IMG/VR virus record: IMGVR_UViG_3300049460_000196
Coordinates: 32,001-96,000 of that record
Source of the DNA: a virus
Length of the DNA: 64,000 nt
Strand: one strand, 5' to 3'
Shown: positions 9,619 through 57,547 of the stretch, one piece after another
Layout of the letters: each line of letters begins with the position of its first letter
How positions within the stretch are numbered: position 1 is the first letter of the stretch
Made by a program: the position numbers and the translations under genes
The notes under the pieces: generated by a model
Told to the model about the DNA's origin: nothing
Databases searched by the model: none
The model's input: the letters and a program-made list of their open reading frames with translations, nothing else

Positions 9619-10224
9619 TCAAGTCTTAAATGAAAGATCATGTTCGACCTGTCTTGTCGCCCAAGCTCGTTCACTGCAATGAAAGCATTGACCACATGCT
9701 GGAATTGAGTCATGTTTCGGGCACGACCGAGTCAATTCCAATAATTCAGATAAGCCCAATGTCTCGTACAGGTAAATGGTTGCACGCTTATCGAAGGTAA
9801 CAAATGGAGTGGCATAACCACGATACTTATTATCCATCGCAGTTAAGGGACGAGATGGAGCTGGCCCCGTGTAATCCCAGTCAAACGGATTCTGGGTTAC
9901 ACCTGTGTACAGCCAATCCATAGTTTCCATCGTTTGATAGATGTCACGACGCAGCTTATTGTCGATCAACACGAACTCATGTTCACGAGACTTCAACTCT
10001 ACGTTGAATTGATTTTCTAACCAACCCAACGTATTGCTGATACTTGCATTCTTGAGACCATTACGGAAAACTGTATAGATCTTATCAGGCACCAACCCAT
10101 TTGCCAACAGTAGATACATGAGGATCACACTGTCAGCGCCACCGGAATACGAAATACCCGTTTGTCCTTCATGGATGGGTATTATCACATTCCGGTATGG
10201 AGTTGGATAAATGACTTCGCGCAT
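9619..10224 (-). CDS. QueC-like PP-loop ATPase
   Basis: SYSGGADS PP-loop and C-terminal TRSC...CGQCFHCSER zinc motif. Confidence 0.75.
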   Translation of the reverse strand: MREVIYPTPYRNVIIPIHEGQTGISYSGGADSVILMYLLLANGLVPDKIYTVFRNGLKNASISNTLGWLENQFNVELKSREHEFVLIDNKLRRDIYQTMETMDWLYTGVTQNPFDWDYTGPAPSRPLTAMDNKYRGYATPFVTFDKRATIYLYETLGLSELLELTRSCPKHDSIPACGQCFHCSERAWATRQVEHDLSFKT

Positions 10225-11819
10225 TACGATTTGATACCTTTACTTTGCACCGATTCTTGGTCAACCTCTTCCAAGAATGTGAAAGACGAACTCGCACTCA
10301 ATTCATCCAACAGTGGTTTAATATCGCTACCGGTGGCTTCCTTCGTTGCCAGGAAGAAGTAGATGGGTGGCGACACGAAGGTAATACCTGGGCATTCCAG
10401 CGTAACTCGGAACCACATTTGTTTCACCAGTACACCAACTCCCAAATCTGCATTTGGGTCAATACGAATTTGAACCACGCCCGTGTTAGTCACGAATGAT
10501 TTACTCATGATTGCTTCGATGGACTCGTTACCATACGATAACGAGAAGACTGCATTTTCGCCATTGGCTTGTGCCAACGTACTGGCCGGCATCAACATCT
10601 TGATGTCAACAAACATGCTATCATCCATTCCCAACACTTCAACACCCAGATATTGAATATTGTCATCTGGTAATGAGCTAGTATCTGGACGGTGCAAAAG
10701 CTTATTCTCAGCTTGCGACACATTGGTTTGCAAAATCAACGCATTCAATGTTGCGTCGTCGATGATGGCTTTGGTAACATCAGCTGACAATGGAGCACTT
10801 GAACGCAAACTATACAAGACACTTGCGACACCACTAACAAAAGCTGCCGAGAACGACGAACCAGTATTGGTGCTATATTGATTCGTTGTATTGATAGTTG
10901 GCACCGCAACCATGTCACCTGGTGCATATATGTCAATCTTTTTATTCACGCCATATACGTTGTAGAGCGCACGATCATCTTTCGAACTGGCGGCTACCGT
11001 AAACACACCTGGAATACCAGCTGGGGTAACATCGTCAATGTTGAGATCACTATTGCCAGCCGCAGCTACCACCGTGATACCAGCAGCCAAGAGGGCTGCG
11101 ATCTTTTCATCCAAGTAGGCACTACGCGGAATAGCCCAGCTCAGATTGACTACCTTTGGCACTGTTAGGGTGCTTGTGTGGTGAGATAAGATGGCGTCAA
11201 AGATGTCACCCAATTCACCAAGGGTTGGTTTGCGATCTTTGCTGCTGATCTTAACATTGCTGATTGTTGCGTGTGGATTCATACCCAATGTCGCACCTGC
11301 CACCAATGCCGCGATGGCGGTGCCGTGACCCAAGTCATCAGTGCCATCAGTATAGAAAGGCACGGAGAACAAGTCTTCAATAGCTGTATTGGCAAATTCA
11401 GCATGGGTGGCATCGATACCACTGTCCACGATGATCACTTCGACGGGACGTTGAGGTGTGATGTCGGCAAAATATGGATTAGGGATGAATGGACGATATC
11501 GATTTGCGATGCGATTTTCTGCCCATTTGTTAACTGTGTCATCAGCCAACATCTTGATAGGAGCATCAAATGGCTCCATCACTTCGCCTGCTTTGATGCG
11601 TGGAACTGGATCTGCTTCTTCCTCGGTGACCCAGGTACCGTCATCTTTACGGACGTGGAATTGAATGGCGTCGCCTTCAGTTTCCACTGTATCGATCCCA
11701 TCAAATTGTAGAGCAAGATTGATTAAGCCAATGTTTACTTTGTCAATAGATACTTCTCCGGTCATTGCCAGAAAAGCTGCTTCACGTTCCGATGTTTTGA
11801 ATGTGAGTTTTAAGAACAT
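10224..11819 (-). CDS. S8 subtilisin-like serine peptidase
   Basis: IVDSGID, GHGT, AAGN, GSSFSA catalytic motifs; start placed at MFLKLT behind GAGG. Confidence 0.88.
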   Translation of the reverse strand: MFLKLTFKTSEREAAFLAMTGEVSIDKVNIGLINLALQFDGIDTVETEGDAIQFHVRKDDGTWVTEEEADPVPRIKAGEVMEPFDAPIKMLADDTVNKWAENRIANRYRPFIPNPYFADITPQRPVEVIIVDSGIDATHAEFANTAIEDLFSVPFYTDGTDDLGHGTAIAALVAGATLGMNPHATISNVKISSKDRKPTLGELGDIFDAILSHHTSTLTVPKVVNLSWAIPRSAYLDEKIAALLAAGITVVAAAGNSDLNIDDVTPAGIPGVFTVAASSKDDRALYNVYGVNKKIDIYAPGDMVAVPTINTTNQYSTNTGSSFSAAFVSGVASVLYSLRSSAPLSADVTKAIIDDATLNALILQTNVSQAENKLLHRPDTSSLPDDNIQYLGVEVLGMDDSMFVDIKMLMPASTLAQANGENAVFSLSYGNESIEAIMSKSFVTNTGVVQIRIDPNADLGVGVLVKQMWFRVTLECPGITFVSPPIYFFLATKEATGSDIKPLLDELSASSSFTFLEEVDQESVQSKGIKS

Positions 11820-11820
11820 G

Positions 11821-12762
11821 TTATTCCTCTTTATTAATTTGGGCAAGCGCATGGCGCTCGCGTAGAACTTCCGTGATCTCTTCTGGAAGCTCCAATAAAC
11901 TATCGTATTCTGGATACTTACTGTGATGCGGTAATCTGAAAAACTTTTCAAATGCCCAGCCATCACCAGTCATATTGGCAAAATGTTCTTTCACCAATTC
12001 AAACCCTGTATACTTCTGTTGCTGTGGAATAACACTCAAACCCAATCTGTGCATACCGGTCACCTTCGCGATGTAGCGAAGTGCGATATCGGTTGGCATA
12101 TCGGGCTGAAACAGCATGAAAGGTAAGGCGATGTCAAGTGTATATCCAAGGAAATTTCCTACCAAAGGATATTTATTGATTTCAGCAAACGTCATCCAGA
12201 CACTATGACTGCGATTGGAAATGAACTCCCATTTGCCATCTCTTATACATGGTGGATTGCCGCCGCAAATAATAGCTGATGGAGCAAACCGTTCAATCAG
12301 CATTTCGTAGAAACGGCAATGGGCAGATAGCTGTGGCGATGGACAGTTGTATTTGACCACATAGGATGGAAGGTCGCGGCCCAGAAAACTCAATATGTTG
12401 AAGTCAACCAGCGTGTACTTGAATCTATGTGTTGTGCAAAAGGTGATGGCGGAAGAAACGTCATGGATATTCAGGTCATCACGAAATTGCATAATCACAA
12501 TGGTGAATTTCACATTAGCTCGTCGCAGCAAAAGGCATGCCGCCTGACTGTCAATCCCACCACTCAAGGCAACATATATGTTTGGCCCCAAAGATGCGGA
12601 AACGCTTGCTATTGACGCCTGCTGACGAGCCAGGAGTTCGGAAGGGATATAAGCACCAGTAAGTATATCAAATTGAGCGCCAGCTGACATCCGCCAAACC
12701 AGTTTGTTGACTGGTTCGACCGTGGGGGACAACCATTTTTCATGAAAAATACCTGGGGTCAT
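11821..12762 (-). CDS. PP-loop (adenine nucleotide alpha-hydrolase) protein
   Basis: IYVALSGGIDSQ motif. Confidence 0.7.
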   Translation of the reverse strand: MTPGIFHEKWLSPTVEPVNKLVWRMSAGAQFDILTGAYIPSELLARQQASIASVSASLGPNIYVALSGGIDSQAACLLLRRANVKFTIVIMQFRDDLNIHDVSSAITFCTTHRFKYTLVDFNILSFLGRDLPSYVVKYNCPSPQLSAHCRFYEMLIERFAPSAIICGGNPPCIRDGKWEFISNRSHSVWMTFAEINKYPLVGNFLGYTLDIALPFMLFQPDMPTDIALRYIAKVTGMHRLGLSVIPQQQKYTGFELVKEHFANMTGDGWAFEKFFRLPHHSKYPEYDSLLELPEEITEVLRERHALAQINKEE

Positions 12763-14384: not shown

Positions 14385-15273
14385 TTAGTACCACTGAGAT
14401 TACATGGTCCTCGTTGACGCTTCGAACATTATTAGCCAGGATTGCGTCCCAACCTTCTTTCGATATCCACTAGAGCCCCTTTCGGGTAATCTAGTACGCC
14501 AACATCATCGCCGTTTTAAGTCAGGCAGTAGACTTGACACAGGGTGCTATTCTACGACTTTCCATCCGTTGACATTCGACTGCCATTAGAGCTTGCGGGC
14601 CCTACGAACTTCTTTTCATAAACCAACTAGGCCTTGCGAGCTTCGCTGAACTTGATTAACTTTCGTCTCAAGTATTAGATGATTTTCACACCCTGCCGAG
14701 GTAGACTTTGCATTTTGTATAAGTAAACGGTTTGATCGTTCGCTCTTTCTCCAATGAAAGTGCCATTTCTGGCGTGCAACTCACTGCGACGTGCTACCTC
14801 AGCTGCTCCAAAGTCTTTTGGACTCCAGAATACAACACGCCACGTATCTTTCGCCTCGCGGGCTACCGGATCGTCTTTCTCGACTAATGTCCACACCCTT
14901 GCGGATAGTCCACCAACCGATAAAACTGCATCATACCTCTTGGGTGCGACCCCTCGAAACATAACACTACCTTTCCCCGTACAAGATGGCAAGTTGGATT
15001 TGTGATGAGACTCGGCTCCCGCCATGTTCTCCCTCAACTGATGTTCCCTAACGAGCAAGCCCGCTAGGCATCTAAGCCAAGGTTCTTTCCATCACTCTTG
15101 CGTCCCAATTATCTCCAGGATAACCTGAAGTGCTTCCTTTCGGAAGCCGGGTCGGCTTGCATAACAGAACCACTTGCATGGCGCGGCTGCGTGAGCTTGA
15201 CCGCTTTCCCCGGGTTGCCCCGGCTCTTCCTTCCAATATACGGCAAGCCGTATACCGTGGAGCTATGCCCCCA
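14385..15273 (-). ncRNA. Large structured ncRNA, GOLLD-like
   Basis: ~890 nt with no convincing ORF and many GNRA-capped hairpins; segments GTGTTGTATT...CAAAAG, GACTTAAAA and terminal GTAATCTCAG match my recollection of GOLLD; next to tRNAs. Confidence 0.6.
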
Positions 15274-22476: not shown

Positions 22477-22539
22477 CTGCTACTCCGTGTTCGTTTATCT
22501 TGTTCCTATTATAGGCGTAGATGAACAAACAATCAAGTA

Positions 22540-22752
22540 TTAGTCACGTTTGTTTGCCAGTTCGTTCAACTGTTTGCTGAGGTCGGCGTCGGTTTCGGCG
22601 GTGATCACGCCCAGCTTAACCATGTTGTTCATGGTACCACGATACACTTCAAACTCGCGGTTATCGAACGACTCAACCATCACGTGCTCGCGACCAGTGT
22701 CGCTGTCGAAGGTGTCGTAGTTGTGTTTGATCTGCGCGTTGATGATATACAT
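22540..22752 (-). CDS. Hypothetical protein
   Basis: 70 aa, SD AGGAG, promoter upstream. Confidence 0.7.
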   Translation of the reverse strand: MYIINAQIKHNYDTFDSDTGREHVMVESFDNREFEVYRGTMNNMVKLGVITAETDADLSKQLNELANKRD

Positions 22753-22817
22753 GGTCGCTCCTGCATTTGTGTAGAATCACATTATAGACGCAGATGAACA
22801 GAAAATCAAGTAATATT

Positions 22818-23095
22818 TGGTGGACCAGAGCGGAATTGAACCGCCACGACGTCGCGAACGTCTTTCCCAGTGCGGAGGACTTGTACTCACCTGAGTAGCC
22901 CAGCGAAGCACCAATACATGATGCTTTGGTGGACTATGGGGACTCGAACCCCCTCTCCCTGGCCCGTAATGATCAGCCTCGTGGGGCTTGTCCCACAATC
23001 TCCGCCATTAGATGTAGCGGTGCTGAATCACGCTTCTGAAGCTACTCGCTTGAAGCCGATCATTACGAGCGACTGTTGCCAGTCACCCAGCTGGT
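22818..23095 (-). ncRNA. Tandem Ala-acceptor tRNA-like RNAs
   Basis: Two T arms, each followed by ...GTCC-A-CCA (ends at 22818 and 22927); 15 bp stem in the upstream unit; D arms atypical. Confidence 0.5.
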
Positions 23096-33884: not shown

Positions 33885-33961
33885 TGGTTGCGGATGGGTG
33901 GATTCGAACCACCGACGTAGAGGTTATGAGCCTCCTCTTCTGACCACTGAATTACACCGCA
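33885..33961 (-). tRNA. tRNA with CAT anticodon (fMet-like, bulged acceptor)
   Basis: CT CAT AA, CCA. Confidence 0.75.
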
Positions 33962-34724: not shown

Positions 34725-34809
34725 TGGTACCCTGGGCGAGACTCGAACTCGCAAACCTTACGGCACATGGACCTGAACCATGCGTGTCTTCCAATTCCAC
34801 CACCAGGGC
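34725..34809 (-). tRNA. tRNA-Leu(CAG)
   Basis: Type II cloverleaf, CCA. Confidence 0.9.
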
Positions 34810-34824
34810 ATTACTGTATTACTA

Positions 34825-35027
34825 TCAAGTCGCGTGCTGCTACGCCAAAGGAGAGCTGCCCATACGCCGCCCAAGACGACTTTTGGCTACATGCTTCTAT
34901 CAACATTTATCCCTGCCACATCACCATTCTATACCACCACTAGGGTTCGGCATTATGGCATTTCGCGGCTCGGGTGCTTCGCTCCACTCATTAAGGATGG
35001 CTGCTTCTAAGCCAACCACAAGCTTGA
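34825..35027 (-). ncRNA. 23S rRNA GTPase-associated-centre (H43-H44, L11-binding) mimic
   Basis: GTTGGCTTAGAAGCAGCCATC matches 23S helix 43; GCGTAGCAGC resembles the helix 44 loop; closed by TCAAG/CTTGA. Confidence 0.75.
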
Positions 35028-35063
35028 CTCAAGTACCTGACTGGCTGTCAGGATTTGGAGAAA

Positions 35064-35139
35064 TGGTAGTTCCTGACGGGTTCGAACCATCGACATCCAC
35101 TTTGTAAGAGTGGCGCTCTACCAGCTGAGCTAAGGAACC
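35064..35139 (-). tRNA. tRNA-Val(TAC)
   Basis: Cloverleaf, CCA. Confidence 0.92.
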
Positions 35140-37249: not shown

Positions 37250-37324
37250 TGGTAGGGCCGCAGGAGCTCGAATCCTGTTTGTCTGGTTAAAAGCCAGATA
37301 CTTCACCATTAAAGTTTCAACCCC
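37250..37324 (-). tRNA. tRNA-Lys(TTT)
   Basis: CT TTT AA, CCA. Confidence 0.85.
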
Positions 37325-39474: not shown

Positions 39475-39549
39475 TGGTGCCCCAGGATGGAATCGAACCA
39501 CCGCACGCTGCTTACAAAACAGCACCTCTACCATTAAGGATACAAGGGC
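39475..39549 (-). tRNA. tRNA-Thr(TGT)
   Basis: TT TGT AA, CCA. Confidence 0.85.
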
Positions 39550-51129: not shown

Positions 51130-52704
51130 TTACTGATTTGCGCGAGCGCGGACTTCTTCCAGATCGTATTCTTTCAGGATTTGACCGTTGTACCACACGT
51201 CTTGCATGACTTCGGTGTGATCCTCGGTCATGTCTTCGATACGGATGGTCATGTACTCGCCGACCTTGCTTTGCACCACGGTCAAGCGACCTGCTTTGCT
51301 ACGCTTACCCGAGTCGGTGATTGGATCCTTGAACACGTCGACCCATACGCCGTCAACTTCGGCCGCGCACGTCTTTTCAGCGAACTTGTAGGTATCGCGG
51401 TTGACTTGTTGCAGCAGACCACCACCCTGACCGAAGACCATGTTTTCGATCGAGAAGCCGGCCGATTTCACTGCCATGCAAATGCGCTCGAAATCTTCAG
51501 GTTTCGACAAGCCGTCACCTTGCAGGATGCGGACAACGTTCAGGACTTTGTAGCCCTTGCTGTTGACCGTAACGCCGAAGCCTTCTTCGAAGATCTTCAG
51601 CAGTTCCAGGATGACCGTGACTGCGTCGCCGCTGTCTGGACGAACAACCAGCTTGATGCCTTTGTCCAGGATCTTTTGGCGCAGATCGCCTTTCGCGAAT
51701 TCACGTGCCAGGTTGAAGATGTCGTAGCCGTCGCTGACGATCGAGATCAACGTACCGACACCAAAGCGGCCGAATTCGTCGATGATGTCGTTCACGGTTT
51801 TCAGCTCGCCGTCACGACCACGCATGGTCATGATGCTGTGTTCAGTTGCGAACACGCTGTAGGCCGACATTTCGCTGTTGTAGTACGTGTTCGCGAACAG
51901 CGCACCCGTGATAGTGTCGGTGCCCATTGCACCCGTTGCCAGGTGAGCGGCGCCGCCGATACCAGCCGATACGATGCTCGAAACGCCGCGGGCGCCGAAG
52001 TCGTGGAACATGAACGCAATTGCTTCAGCGATCGACAGATCCGAGGTTTCGCTGATGTACTTCTTCAGGATGTTACGAACGGTCATGGAACGCGACGCAA
52101 CCGTCGTTGGGTACCAGACTGCACGCAGCATCGAGGTCTCGAAGTATGCGACCATCCAGGCGAGTTCTGGGTCGGTGCTTTCGATGGTGACCAGCGCATT
52201 GCGGGAGTCGATCACCATACCTTCTGGCAGAGCGCGGATGCGCAGTGGCAGGTGGCCGCCGTAGACGTTGACCACTTTTTCCCAGTCTGCGCGGGGGAAG
52301 ATTTCTTTGCCGCCGATGATGTGCTTCTCGAAGAACGCTTCAGCCTGATCGATCATTTCCATGGTGATCGGGCGCAGACGTTTGATCCAGATTTGCAGAC
52401 CGAAGAACAGCACTTTCTCCGCAAACGAACGCGGTTCGATGTAGCTGAACGCACCGGTCACGCCCAAACGGCCGTACATTGCTTGGTGGCACAGCTTGTA
52501 CGAGTCAACGTCCAGGATGACGTTGTCTTCAGGCTTTTCGATCGTGCGGGGATCACCCAGCAGTTTCAGATCAGCCCACAGTTTAGCGCGACGGATGGAG
52601 TCGGCGATGAACTGGTCAGCTTGTGCTTTAGCGGCATCCAGGGTGGCTACCGATACGGCTTGTTTGGTATAGCTGGTTTCGATTACGTTGTCTTCAGTTT
52701 TCAT
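51130..52704 (-). CDS. nadV: Nicotinamide phosphoribosyltransferase
   Basis: DSYK, WYPTTVA, HDFGARG, ATEHS, RPDSGD, QGDG, KDPITD.GK.SK.G. Confidence 0.95.
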   Translation of the reverse strand: MKTEDNVIETSYTKQAVSVATLDAAKAQADQFIADSIRRAKLWADLKLLGDPRTIEKPEDNVILDVDSYKLCHQAMYGRLGVTGAFSYIEPRSFAEKVLFFGLQIWIKRLRPITMEMIDQAEAFFEKHIIGGKEIFPRADWEKVVNVYGGHLPLRIRALPEGMVIDSRNALVTIESTDPELAWMVAYFETSMLRAVWYPTTVASRSMTVRNILKKYISETSDLSIAEAIAFMFHDFGARGVSSIVSAGIGGAAHLATGAMGTDTITGALFANTYYNSEMSAYSVFATEHSIMTMRGRDGELKTVNDIIDEFGRFGVGTLISIVSDGYDIFNLAREFAKGDLRQKILDKGIKLVVRPDSGDAVTVILELLKIFEEGFGVTVNSKGYKVLNVVRILQGDGLSKPEDFERICMAVKSAGFSIENMVFGQGGGLLQQVNRDTYKFAEKTCAAEVDGVWVDVFKDPITDSGKRSKAGRLTVVQSKVGEYMTIRIEDMTEDHTEVMQDVWYNGQILKEYDLEEVRARANQ

Positions 52705-52727
52705 GATAATTCCTATCAATGTTAAAA

Positions 52728-52812: not shown

Positions 52813-53961
52813 TTACTGATATTTTTTCAACTGGCTCAGTGCGTACAGGAGCATGTCGTAGTGATCTTCGAAGAACTGGATGCGCGACAGCATGTGAACA
52901 GGAACCCAGATTGCTTCTTTGGCGTCGTCACTGCCTTTTACTTTAGGCAGACCTTTGCCATCGCTTGGCAGCACGATGATTTGTGCAGTAGTGATGACGC
53001 GACCACGGCGGGAACGGTTGACGGCGTCGAAGACTTTTTCTTCCTTGATGCAGCCGCGAATCAGTGCTTCGGGCAGCTTGATCTTGGTTTCTTCGAACAG
53101 TTCACGGATGCCGCATTCGAGCATGCTTGCATCAGCTTTGATCAGCTCGCCCTTCTTGTTCGTGTAGGTCTTGGCGTTGACGAATCCGCCTGGGAATGCC
53201 AACAGGTTTTTGCCTGGATTGGACTTACGGCGGATCAGCAGGACGTGACCATCTTTGAACACGATTGCGTCGCCGGTGTTGAACGTGATCGGATATGGCA
53301 GGTGCTCGAATTGCTTGCGATAGTCCCGGATGTACTTGGCTTCGTCAACCACGTATTGGTAGTTGGTCGAAGTCAGGAAGCGTTCCAGGAAACGCGCAGT
53401 TGCGCTTGGTACAACACCTTTGAACAGGTTCAGATTGCACTTCGGGCTGAAGTACAGTTCGCGGATAGTGGTTGCATCCAGGATTTCCACCAGCGGCATT
53501 TCGATCGGCTCGCCCCACTGCGGGAACATCTTCAGGTAGAAGCTCGAATCGTCTTTGCTGTGGCCGATCAACTTCACGTTGTCGCCGAGCAGCAGCGGCT
53601 GAACTTGTGCTGCGACGTCCATGCCCCAGCCTGCATTGCTGTAACGTTGGTTTTCTACAGAGATGAACTTCAGGCGGTCGTCCAGATCATCGACTGGAAT
53701 GTTGCGAGCGATGCATGCGTCGTGGATGCTTTCGCGGATCACTTCCATGCGTTCGTCTTGCGTGAACGGATTGTCTTCGTCACGCGGTTCGTTCGCAGAA
53801 CCCACTGCCACGATCACACGGTAGGCCAGCGTCATGGCGTGCATGATCGTTTCCAGGTGTGCATTATGGAATGGTTGGAAGCGGCCAATGTAGATGACCG
53901 TGTCATACGCATATTTGATAGCCTGCGCAATAGGCTTGAGGGTTGGTGCTGCGGTTGTCAT
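52813..53961 (-). CDS. nadM: Bifunctional NMN adenylyltransferase / Nudix hydrolase (NadM-Nudix)
   Basis: YIGRFQPFHNAH, NPF, GHSKDDSSFYL; Nudix PGGF...RELFEET, DDAKEAIW, FEDH. Confidence 0.95.
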   Translation of the reverse strand: MTTAAPTLKPIAQAIKYAYDTVIYIGRFQPFHNAHLETIMHAMTLAYRVIVAVGSANEPRDEDNPFTQDERMEVIRESIHDACIARNIPVDDLDDRLKFISVENQRYSNAGWGMDVAAQVQPLLLGDNVKLIGHSKDDSSFYLKMFPQWGEPIEMPLVEILDATTIRELYFSPKCNLNLFKGVVPSATARFLERFLTSTNYQYVVDEAKYIRDYRKQFEHLPYPITFNTGDAIVFKDGHVLLIRRKSNPGKNLLAFPGGFVNAKTYTNKKGELIKADASMLECGIRELFEETKIKLPEALIRGCIKEEKVFDAVNRSRRGRVITTAQIIVLPSDGKGLPKVKGSDDAKEAIWVPVHMLSRIQFFEDHYDMLLYALSQLKKYQ

Positions 53962-53982
53962 GATAATTCCTATCAAGTTATG

Positions 53983-54005
53983 CTCAACTGGTCTATCCGG
54001 TCGAG
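53983..54005 (-). promoter_or_regulatory. GGATAGACC hairpin in the nadM leader
   Basis: CTCGAC-CGGATAGACCA-GTTGAG. Confidence 0.7.
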
Positions 54006-54067
54006 GTACTACTGGTGGGTTTATTGCCACACCGTCATGCTACTGGCTTCAGGCCAGTTACGCAAGA

Positions 54068-56614: not shown

Positions 56615-57547
56615 ATGGCAACAAATAAAGACTTCTTGGTGAAAAATGGCCTGACGTTAGGTGGCACAATCACTAAGGTAAATGGGGCGGCTCCCACTAA
56701 TGGCCAACTCTTGATTGGTAATACCACCAATTCAAATTTCTCAGTTGGTACACTTACGGTATCAAACGGAGTACTGATTGTCAATGGTGCAGGCACTATT
56801 AGTCTCAGTACCAATGCAACTTCTAATAATACTGCTTCAACTATTGTATCTCGTGATGCCACTGGGAACTTTTCGGCTGGCACGATCACCGCTGCATTGT
56901 CAGGTAATGCGTCGACGGCAACCAAATTACAAGTTAGTCGAAATATGTCTATAACTGGCGATATTGTCCCAGTATCTAACCAAGTTGATTGGAGCACTGA
57001 CTACGTCTTCGATTTACAATTGACTGCTACTGGTGTGGCTGCGGGTACATACAATACGGTAACCCTTGATACCTCGGGCCGGGCAACTGCCGCACAGAAT
57101 GCCAATGGAACAGTGGCACAAAAAATTATTGGCGAAGTCGCACAGGTATCAGGCACCAGTCAGATCGCATATGGTAATACTGCACCGGTATCTACCGCAG
57201 GCACACAGATATGGTCTCAAGCATTTACGCCAAAGTCGGCGACCTCTGATATCGCAATTGAGTTTTCTGGGTTTGTTGACTCAGGTACCAACAATCGCTA
57301 TGTGACGCTTACCTGCTTCCGTGGTACAACCTTAATTGGGCTTACTTCTGCATATATCGCATCTACCAATAGTCCCAATGCGGTTTGTTTGCGATTGATG
57401 GATAATCCAAATACCACATCCAGTGTTACCTATTCTATGCGGATAGGCATATCAACATCTGGCAATACTTGGTATTTGGGTAAAAGTCAGGGCGCCACCT
57501 TTGGTGGTACTAATTGGTCTGGTTGGAGTATTACGGAGATTTATTGA
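56615..57547 (+). CDS. Tail-fibre-like protein
   Basis: N-terminus paralogous to 55021; TGVAAGTY..VT.D..GR.T. Confidence 0.8.
   Translation: MATNKDFLVKNGLTLGGTITKVNGAAPTNGQLLIGNTTNSNFSVGTLTVSNGVLIVNGAGTISLSTNATSNNTASTIVSRDATGNFSAGTITAALSGNASTATKLQVSRNMSITGDIVPVSNQVDWSTDYVFDLQLTATGVAAGTYNTVTLDTSGRATAAQNANGTVAQKIIGEVAQVSGTSQIAYGNTAPVSTAGTQIWSQAFTPKSATSDIAIEFSGFVDSGTNNRYVTLTCFRGTTLIGLTSAYIASTNSPNAVCLRLMDNPNTTSSVTYSMRIGISTSGNTWYLGKSQGATFGGTNWSGWSITEIY

Follow-up and report, generated by a model that had tools for sequence, protein, structure and literature searches.

A phage-borne, self-closed copy of the 23S rRNA GTPase-associated center among tRNA genes

What is a copy of a piece of the ribosome doing among the tRNA genes of a phage? 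The question is raised by a 203-nt element on the minus strand (34825-35027, first to last base of its closing stem) of the window, the whole 64,000-nt stretch that we analyzed, which comes from an IMG/VR virus record of 113 kb with an estimated completeness of 27%. ARAGORN predicts 51 tRNA genes in the window, all on the minus strand, and the element fills part of the 254-nt gap between those for tRNA-Val and tRNA-Leu. [quoted passage not shown] Here, we ask whether this description holds, how widespread the RNA is and which ligand its conserved nucleotides point to. Throughout, nucleotides are numbered by their E. coli 23S equivalents.

Architecture of the element and its likeness to 23S rRNA

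The strings on which the original description was built all lie on the minus strand: GTTGGCTTAGAAGCAGCCATC at 35015-34995, CTTAATGAG from 34995, its first C being the last base of GTTGGCTTAGAAGCAGCCATC, and GCGTAGCAGCAC at 34845-34834. The extra sequence between them, put at about 130 nt, measures ~139 nt from GAGUG to GCGUA. The closing stem is indeed present, with tRNA-Val and tRNA-Leu flanking it on the minus strand, and its exact ends are the boundaries that had been proposed for the element. As listed in Table 1, the element runs from the closing stem through the H43 hairpin, a 5-nt mini-hairpin, GAGUG, an insert with a basal helix, (C)UUUG, the GCGUANNAGC hairpin and AC back to the closing stem, which has nine pairs and one bulged C (35027-35018 with 34833-34825). 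This order of parts lines up with that of 53 other unique members of the family described below. Between tRNA-Val and the closing stem there is also a small hairpin, CCUGAC-AGCCA-GUCAGG, at 35036-35052 (minus strand).

Table 1. Window coordinates of the element, its parts and the flanking tRNA genes
Feature	Position	Strand	Evidence
Whole GAC-mimic RNA	34825..35027	-	cmsearch with family model R1 matches 34823-35027; pair list
Closing stem, 5' strand UCAAG(C)UUGU, in place of the top of H42	35018..35027	-	pairs with 34825-34833
H43 hairpin (1058-1080 equivalents), GGUUGGCUUAGAAGCAGCCAUCC	34995..35017	-	Rfam LSU_rRNA_bacteria positions 1099-1121
H43 loop, UUAGAAGCA	35002-35010	-	A1067 equivalent at 35008
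Junction mini-hairpin J31 (1082-1086 equivalent), UUAAU	34990..34994	-	family comparison
Lower H44, 5' strand GAGU (G1087, A1088, G1089 and U1090 equivalents)	34986..34989	-	pairs with AC
Accessory domain, 136 nt, inserted between 1090 and 1091; basal helix GGAG(C)/(G)CUCC	34850..34985	-	
Single-stranded linker UUUG, insert to upper H44	34846..34849	-	conserved in family
Upper H44 hairpin, GCGUAGCAGC (1091-1100 equivalents)	34836..34845	-	A1095 equivalent at 34841
Lower H44, 3' strand AC (A1101 and C1102 equivalents)	34834..34835	-	pair list
Closing stem, 3' strand GCGACUUGA	34825..34833	-	pairs with 35018-35027
tRNA-Val(UAC), 36 nt upstream of element	35064..35139	-	ARAGORN; Rfam tRNA 66.7 bits
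tRNA-Leu(CAG), 15 nt downstream of element	34725..34809	-	ARAGORN; Rfam tRNA 47.8 bits

The likeness to rRNA is strong over a short stretch. A blastn comparison with a true 23S gene gives 21/21 identity at H43 and, for this one gene, no similarity beyond these 21 nt. The Rfam scan that had been proposed as a check returned the same helix: in an 801-nt search, the bacterial LSU model matched 34995-35017 at its positions 1099-1121 with 13.6 bits (E 0.087), and Rfam 15, scanned at gathering cutoffs and at E up to 10, offered no family besides this 23-nt match. We rejected a 23S gene or gene fragment (RF02541), since 13.6 bits over 23 nt compare with a gathering threshold of 50 bits and the similarity does not continue into the neighboring helices H41-42 and H45.

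The element displays the three-way junction of the bacterial GAC (top of H42, H43 and H44; E. coli 1051-1108, the 58-nt uL11/thiostrepton fragment), with an identical H43 loop, a 5-nt mini-hairpin containing two adenines, and an H44 hexaloop GUANNA closed by GC/GC. Its tertiary partners are those of the GAC as well: U1060 with A1088, G1071 with 1091:1100 and C1072 with 1092:1099. It differs from rRNA in being a free-standing 203-nt gene rather than part of a 2.9-kb molecule; in having an arbitrary, covarying stem for H42; in its 136-nt insert at 1090/1091 followed by UUUG; and in carrying A1101 for U1101, lacking the 1057:1081 pair, closing its mini-hairpin with U.U and having U.G for G1056.A1103. 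Nucleotides 1067, 1068 and 1070 are, moreover, free to vary across the mimic family. The stand-alone copy of H43 and H44 with an insertion is thus borne out, all parts being located and the family model matching from end to end, and we regard it as confirmed that the element is a self-closed copy of the 23S GAC.

Leaders of ribosomal protein operons (L10, L1, L20, S15) likewise reproduce the rRNA site of a ribosomal protein off the ribosome, but they are cis-acting 5' leaders of that protein's own mRNA and mimic few determinants. The element copies a whole domain including its tertiary contacts, and is predicted to act in trans as a stable RNA; it lies in a phage tRNA array and has no ribosomal protein gene nearby. 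A leader such as L10_leader was rejected in view of the tRNA flanks, the lack of any leader match at E up to 10 and the absence of a uL11 gene from the record. Full-text literature searches returned no published description of such an RNA. The family therefore appears uncatalogued, in that we could find neither an Rfam family nor a paper for it.

A covarying RNA family and its genomic context

Homologs of the element occur in unannotated gaps of complete cultured-phage genomes, where they were found by blastn against deposited phage genomes. The carriers are Pseudomonas phages pf16, UNO-G1W1, Milchi and Astolliot, Aeromonas phage 4_4572, Xanthomonas phages XacN1 and XbC2, Serratia phage BF, Erwinia phages and Cronobacter phage GAP32. 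We also screened IMG/VR with two patterns. The 5' pattern (H43 plus GAGUGK) is found at 71 loci, all but two of which are the same element; the 19-nt 3' pattern, CUUUGGCGUANNAGCACRC, is found at at least 96 additional loci. With the family defined by covariance model R1 and alignments A1, A2 and A4, the model gives 96 matches at E <1e-5 in 96 listed 3'-motif loci, with L088, L128, L168 and L171 unmatched. After removal of duplicates, viral contigs hold at least 110 distinct elements of 92-435 nt with one common architecture. Each complete 460-530-kb carrier has one copy, and a few phages have two or three, standing in tandem or close together (L140, 3845-4085 and 4098-4335; L161, 1120-1234 and 2175-2363; G068:C1, 156388-157564).

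About 20 further full-length members lie on contigs of bacterial isolates or MAGs. One of these (79.6 bits), in Thiobacillus denitrificans DSM 12475 (NZ_AQWL01000017.1; L200, 3500-3647, minus strand), is on a 41-kb scaffold, 4 nt upstream of a same-strand array of 11 tRNAs, and this scaffold is probably a prophage or phage contig. Roughly half of the matches of the 19-nt 3' motif in bacterial genomes were dismissed as chance, for example three in L218 that are signal-peptide coding sequence; the covariance model separates true members from such matches. The family is thus a large one, consisting of mainly phage-borne genes for what is probably a stable non-coding RNA.

Is the window's copy a functional member of this family or a decayed scrap of rRNA? 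Model R1 was built from 19 compact members (seed A2) that do not include the window element, and yet it matches the element over model positions 1-154 with 68.4 bits (E 2.4e-20), the sole significant match in 64 kb. A second match at 57221-57292 (minus strand; CUUUGGCGUAAAUGC; 8.2 bits, E 0.45) covers the 3' half only and overlaps an opposite-strand ORF (56615-57547), and we treated it as chance. We then measured covariation in an alignment of 47 members over a core of 24 pairs, drawn from the closing stem, the lower and upper parts of both H43 and H44, the 1082:1086 pair and the insert's basal helix. Pairing is found in 90.6% of core cells; sliding the partners by 1-3 columns lowers this to 36-55% and shuffling to 70%. 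Changes on both sides are seen in 17 of the 24 pairs. The covariation score of 0.536 (0.150 in shuffles) was reached by none of 500 shuffles.

Individual helices bear this out. In the closing stem, sequence conservation is confined to the two innermost pairs and all eight counted pairs show compensatory changes, unlike H42 in 33 true 23S genes, which is conserved in sequence. Both the lower and the upper stem of H43 covary, the upper one changing from GGC/GCC to AGC/GCU, GGA/UCC or GGG/CCC, and the basal helix of the insert covaries in four of its five pairs. G1087:C1102 and U1090:A1101 are paired in all members; in upper H44, the element keeps G1091:C1100 and C1092:G1099, and one member (L041) has A:U at 1091:1100. 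Covariation among phage homologs, whose absence the first-pass annotation had said would imply a decayed rRNA fragment, is therefore strong and excludes such a fragment; together with the match to the family model and the blastn result against 23S, it shows that the element is not decayed rRNA scrap. That the family might nevertheless be a functionless relic of some captured 23S rRNA gene, for which the 21 nt identical to H43 could be cited, is hardly credible: there is no other 23S similarity, the closing stem is unlike H42 in sequence yet paired and covarying, rRNA has neither A1101 nor the UUUG linker nor the fixed insertion site, and the fold is kept in more than 100 diverse members.

Thermodynamic folding by itself was set aside as uninformative. 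The predicted free energy is no better than that of shuffled sequences (z -0.63 for the 254-nt spacer and -1.04 for 122 nt of the insert) and the minimum free energy structure mispairs the core, as is expected for a fold held together by tertiary contacts.

The genomic context raises a different possibility, namely that the element serves the tRNA array in cis, for instance as a signal for processing, spacing or stability, and that its likeness to the GAC is incidental. A tRNA lies no more than 300 nt away from 51 of the 110 elements listed; it shares the element's strand in all 51 cases and in many is only 1-16 nt away, and in pf16, 4_4572, UNO-G1W1 and Milchi the element lies between or beside same-strand tRNA genes. 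At the window locus, the element is co-oriented with the tRNAs 36 nt upstream and 15 nt downstream, and we found nothing above chance in the way of a promoter or terminator of the element's own. These features would suit a cis signal. However, for 42 of the 110 unique elements listed, the fetched locus (median 8 kb) contains no tRNA at all. In XacN1, XbC2, Kaldavass and BF, the element stands between protein genes, and in XacN1 and the XbC2/BF/Kaldavass group the closing stem is followed by a terminator hairpin or U-run, so that it can form its own transcription unit. A processing signal, furthermore, would need neither invariant GAC tertiary nucleotides nor covariation at 1082:1086. We consequently hold a purely cis role to be very improbable.

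Judging from its position, the window's copy would be transcribed together with the tRNA array. Its 3' end would be released by RNase P cutting at the 5' end of tRNA-Leu, and its 5' end by 3' trimming of tRNA-Val.

In the loci examined, no protein gene consistently accompanies the element, its neighbors being tRNAs or unrelated small ORFs. Outside dense tRNA arrays, in XacN1 and BF, it is near genes for RNA or translation maintenance: directly upstream in XacN1 is a 2'-5' RNA ligase (ORF260; L270, 5607-6257), and BF has a peptidyl-tRNA hydrolase 4 kb upstream (BF_0391; L269, 247-678) and scattered tRNAs.

The window itself holds another large structured RNA, a full-length GOLLD (Rfam RF02032) at 14391-14843 (minus strand, 203.1 bits). 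GOLLD, ROOL and other large structured phage RNAs resemble the element in being phage-borne and often beside tRNAs, but they share with it no similarity or Rfam match, and the element differs in having an obvious structural model in the GAC. ARAGORN also calls a permuted tmRNA at 22538-23017 (minus strand; tag peptide ASLKCIVVP), which is doubtful because no Rfam tmRNA family reaches its gathering score. Three Rfam tRNA matches of 47-52 bits that ARAGORN does not call (33889-33960, 37253-37324 and 39478-39549, all minus strand) could represent extra or atypical tRNA genes. At 10224-11966, the minus strand encodes a 580-aa peptidase of the subtilase family (Peptidase_S8, E 6e-22).

Conserved and relaxed nucleotides of the GAC fold

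Because the mimic family and true rRNA share a fold, they can be compared nucleotide by nucleotide. In 61 Pseudomonadota genomes, model R1 finds the true 23S GAC in 40 (66-nt matches, 44-56 bits) and a stand-alone element only in the seed genome. For an unbiased sample of the 5' half, we used 58 unique members that, among the matches listed, had been ascertained by their 3' half alone. G1059, U1060, G1071, C1079, A1084, G1087, A1088, G1089 and U1090 are invariant across all 58, and C1072 is present in 56 of them; A1085 is likewise invariant in the family. By contrast, 22-31% of the members vary at 1067 (A in 43, G in 12, U in 2, C in 1), 1068 (G in 40, A in 18) and 1070 (A in 45, G in 13), all three of which are invariant in 33 true 23S genes; the UUAGAAGCA loop occurs in 33 of 33 of these. 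Compared with true 23S, constraint on A1067-A1070 is thus relaxed and constraint on the fold is kept. In H44, the 54 unique members found with the 5' pattern keep G1093, U1094, A1098 and mostly A1095 in the loop, although the 3' locator itself required G1093, U1094, R1095 and A1098; 1096 and 1097 vary freely.

The invariant positions are those that build the GAC. In published descriptions of the GAC, C1072 contacts C1092:G1099, G1071 contacts G1091:C1100 and A1070 contacts A1096, and the 1082:1086 mini-hairpin, with its two stacked adenines, is closed by U-A in E. coli and by C-G in Haloarcula marismortui (PMC2952862). In the family, too, this pair covaries, with U:A in 28 members, C:G in 11 and A:U in 9. 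The window element itself has all the fold builders (U1060, A1088, G1071, C1072, G1091:C1100, C1092:G1099, A1084 and A1085; roles as in PMC2952862). [quoted passage not shown] These interface positions are conserved or covarying in the family, the 1090/1091 insertion point lies outside the published list, and the element has all the listed positions except 1081, which is deleted together with 1057.

The family also has signatures of its own that are absent from rRNA: the fixed insertion at 1090/1091, the UUUG linker, A1101 and an arbitrary closing stem in place of H42. A1101, which replaces the U1101 of rRNA, gives U1090-A1101 as a Watson-Crick pair. The CUUUG linker is nearly invariant in the 54 unique 5'-pattern members, with UUUA, CCUG, CAUUG and UUAG/UUAA as variants. 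The insertion point is constant in the 110 members listed, with inserts of ~27 to ~350 nt that open with a covarying helix, the first pair of which uses the G after U1090. In the compact members L057 and L055, the insert is only a 20-30-nt hairpin, and subfamilies have insert modules such as CGAAG...GGAUAGUAG or a CACCCCG-GNRA-CGGUAAGG hairpin. The element shares GGARCGAAGYACC, GUGGYAUAG and GGAUAGNA with L016, L021, L053 and L134; for these five elements together, RNAalifold predicts 49 pairs overall, 16 of them compensatory, with an imperfect alignment of the element's insert. A sarcin-ricin loop was considered for the insert and rejected, since the GAA...AGUA pair and GNRA hairpin of some subfamilies are not in the sarcin-ricin arrangement and in this copy AGAA is present and the hairpin absent.

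This copy departs from the consensus in the lower part of H43, where it has two pairs instead of three (1057:1081, 1058:1080 and 1059:1079), the 1057:1081 pair being missing, and in its UUAAU mini-hairpin, closed by U.U rather than by a Watson-Crick-type 1082:1086 pair (U1082 matches E. coli, whereas the nucleotide opposite it, 1086, is also U). The whole 1057:1081 pair is deleted in a subgroup that, besides the element, includes L024, L041, L049, L050, L076, L101, L121, L135 and L155, which makes the element a variant within the family rather than an outsider. In most of this subgroup, the non-canonical G/A1056.A1103 becomes U.G, C-G or U-A; the element's G at 1103 pairs with U, as against G.A or A.A in rRNA and most members. 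In its H43 and H44 loops, the canonical A1067 and A1095 are both retained. A sister subfamily, which comprises L084, L141, L163, L125, L115, L153, L159, L174, L137 and L167, has an additional hairpin inserted into H43 after A1077/U1078, at a site within the L11 interface list, and the loops of several of these hairpins are alike (AAUCAGCAC, GAUCAGCGC, CUUGAGCAC).

Candidate ligands and roles in infection

What could such an RNA be for? The element would act off the ribosome, presenting the GAC fold to some ligand whose usual place of contact with this fold is the 50S subunit. We estimate a probability of roughly 0.55 that the RNA serves large phages as a dedicated decoy of the uL11/GTPase-factor docking site. 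Such a decoy would reprogram or protect host translation during infection, either by stripping or trapping uL11, with silencing of the RelA alarm of the stringent response, or by soaking up a host's or competitor's toxin directed against this site of the rRNA.

The first-pass annotation had named uL11, RelA and an rRNA-directed toxin as possible targets. Since the positions of the fold and of the uL11 C-domain interface are invariant and A1067, G1068 and A1070 vary, a ligand that recognizes the fold, or uL11, is favored over a translation factor or antibiotic. This pattern of conservation argues against thiostrepton, or a factor reading A1067, as general ligand and is compatible with uL11; we found no support for RelA binding to a free GAC. 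Host uL11 thus emerges as the most likely single ligand, to be bound through its C-terminal domain and so sequestered, a tentative assignment to which we would give slightly less than an even chance. It is favored because the isolated rRNA domain binds L11 (PMC1802607), the family conserves interface and fold nucleotides, the insertion point is outside the interface, the positions used by thiostrepton and factors drift, and the phages are without uL11. Neither this record nor four complete 410-530-kb carriers encode a uL11, and any that is bound must therefore be the host's. In infected cells, the RNA would then be a sink for uL11, which could lower the occupancy of ribosomes by uL11 and blunt uL11-dependent signaling such as RelA activation; alternatively, a uL11-RNA particle might form whose accessory domain brings a second activity.

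Several observations weigh against uL11. The element lacks 1081 and has a U.U mini-hairpin, so that its own uL11 site is altered, and the second hairpin of the sister subfamily, at ~1077/1078, is within the L11 interface list. With about one uL11 per ribosome, titration would call for a very high level of an RNA made from a single-copy gene, and exchange of ribosome-bound uL11 may be too slow. The free energies given above, no better than those of shuffles, also count on this side.

A toxin is the other target that a decoy could have. The element might be a decoy or competitive inhibitor of an enzyme that attacks the host GAC, such as an ADP-ribosyltransferase, nuclease or methyltransferase, during infection or in bacterial competition; free RNA would absorb the toxin and ribosomes would keep translating phage messages. 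A GAC-directed toxin does exist, since Tre23 ADP-ribosylates H44 of 23S rRNA at ~1095-1098 (PMC8661411). G1093, U1094, A1098 and mostly A1095 are kept in the H44 loop, as such a reading would have it, though the 3' locator required G1093, U1094, R1095 and A1098. The element's place among tRNA genes fits as well; in other phages, tRNAs are reported to replace or outcompete the targets of anti-translation defenses. The window also holds two adjacent minus-strand genes, 51130-52719 (NAPRTase and NAMPT_N) and 52813-54030 (cytidylyltransferase-like/NUDIX, NMNAT type), that we take to be a NAMPT and NMNAT-type pair for NAD+ salvage, as used by phages against NAD-depleting defenses. NAD+ salvage genes are typical of phages that counter host defenses. 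However, no anti-phage system targeting the GAC is known or came up in our literature searches, and an enzyme reading a site would be expected to hold 1096/1097, in the stretch targeted by Tre23, and 1067-1070, all of which vary. Moreover, a fragment cannot replace damaged rRNA, so that protection would need stoichiometric or tight-binding capture. We consider a role as toxin decoy unlikely, though it ranks second after uL11.

The variable insert suggests a third possibility, in which the GAC module, with or without uL11, would be a docking handle and the insert would carry the real activity, for instance by binding a phage protein, a translational GTPase or RelA. Inserts that reach ~350 nt at a fixed point, and modules that are conserved within subfamilies, including the motifs that the element shares with four relatives, speak for such a scaffold. 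Yet the 20-30-nt hairpins of L057 and L055 imply that the core alone must suffice for some function, and no protein gene travels consistently with the element; a scaffold thus seems quite unlikely.

A decoy of the uL11/GTPase-factor docking site would have parallels in small stable RNAs that imitate the nucleic-acid ligand of a host protein. 6S RNA mimics open promoter DNA, and bacterial and phage Y RNAs mimic tRNA (PMC4201824), the Y-RNA-like mimics being, like the element, phage-borne and among tRNAs. There is no relation in sequence or structure, and the element, whose partner is only proposed, imitates an rRNA domain.

The occurrence of the family in cultured phages of Pseudomonas, Aeromonas, Xanthomonas, Cronobacter, Serratia and Erwinia makes its function directly testable. 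If the element is a decoy, it would represent an undescribed viral way to manipulate translation, by imitating a piece of the ribosome rather than by supplying tRNAs or proteins, and would be the first rRNA-domain mimic known to act in trans, as well as the founder of a new class of viral non-coding RNA. Its more than 100 natural variants of the GAC would then separate what the fold and the uL11 surface need from what factors and antibiotics contact. The family also suggests that hosts may attack the GAC by a class of mechanism yet to be discovered.
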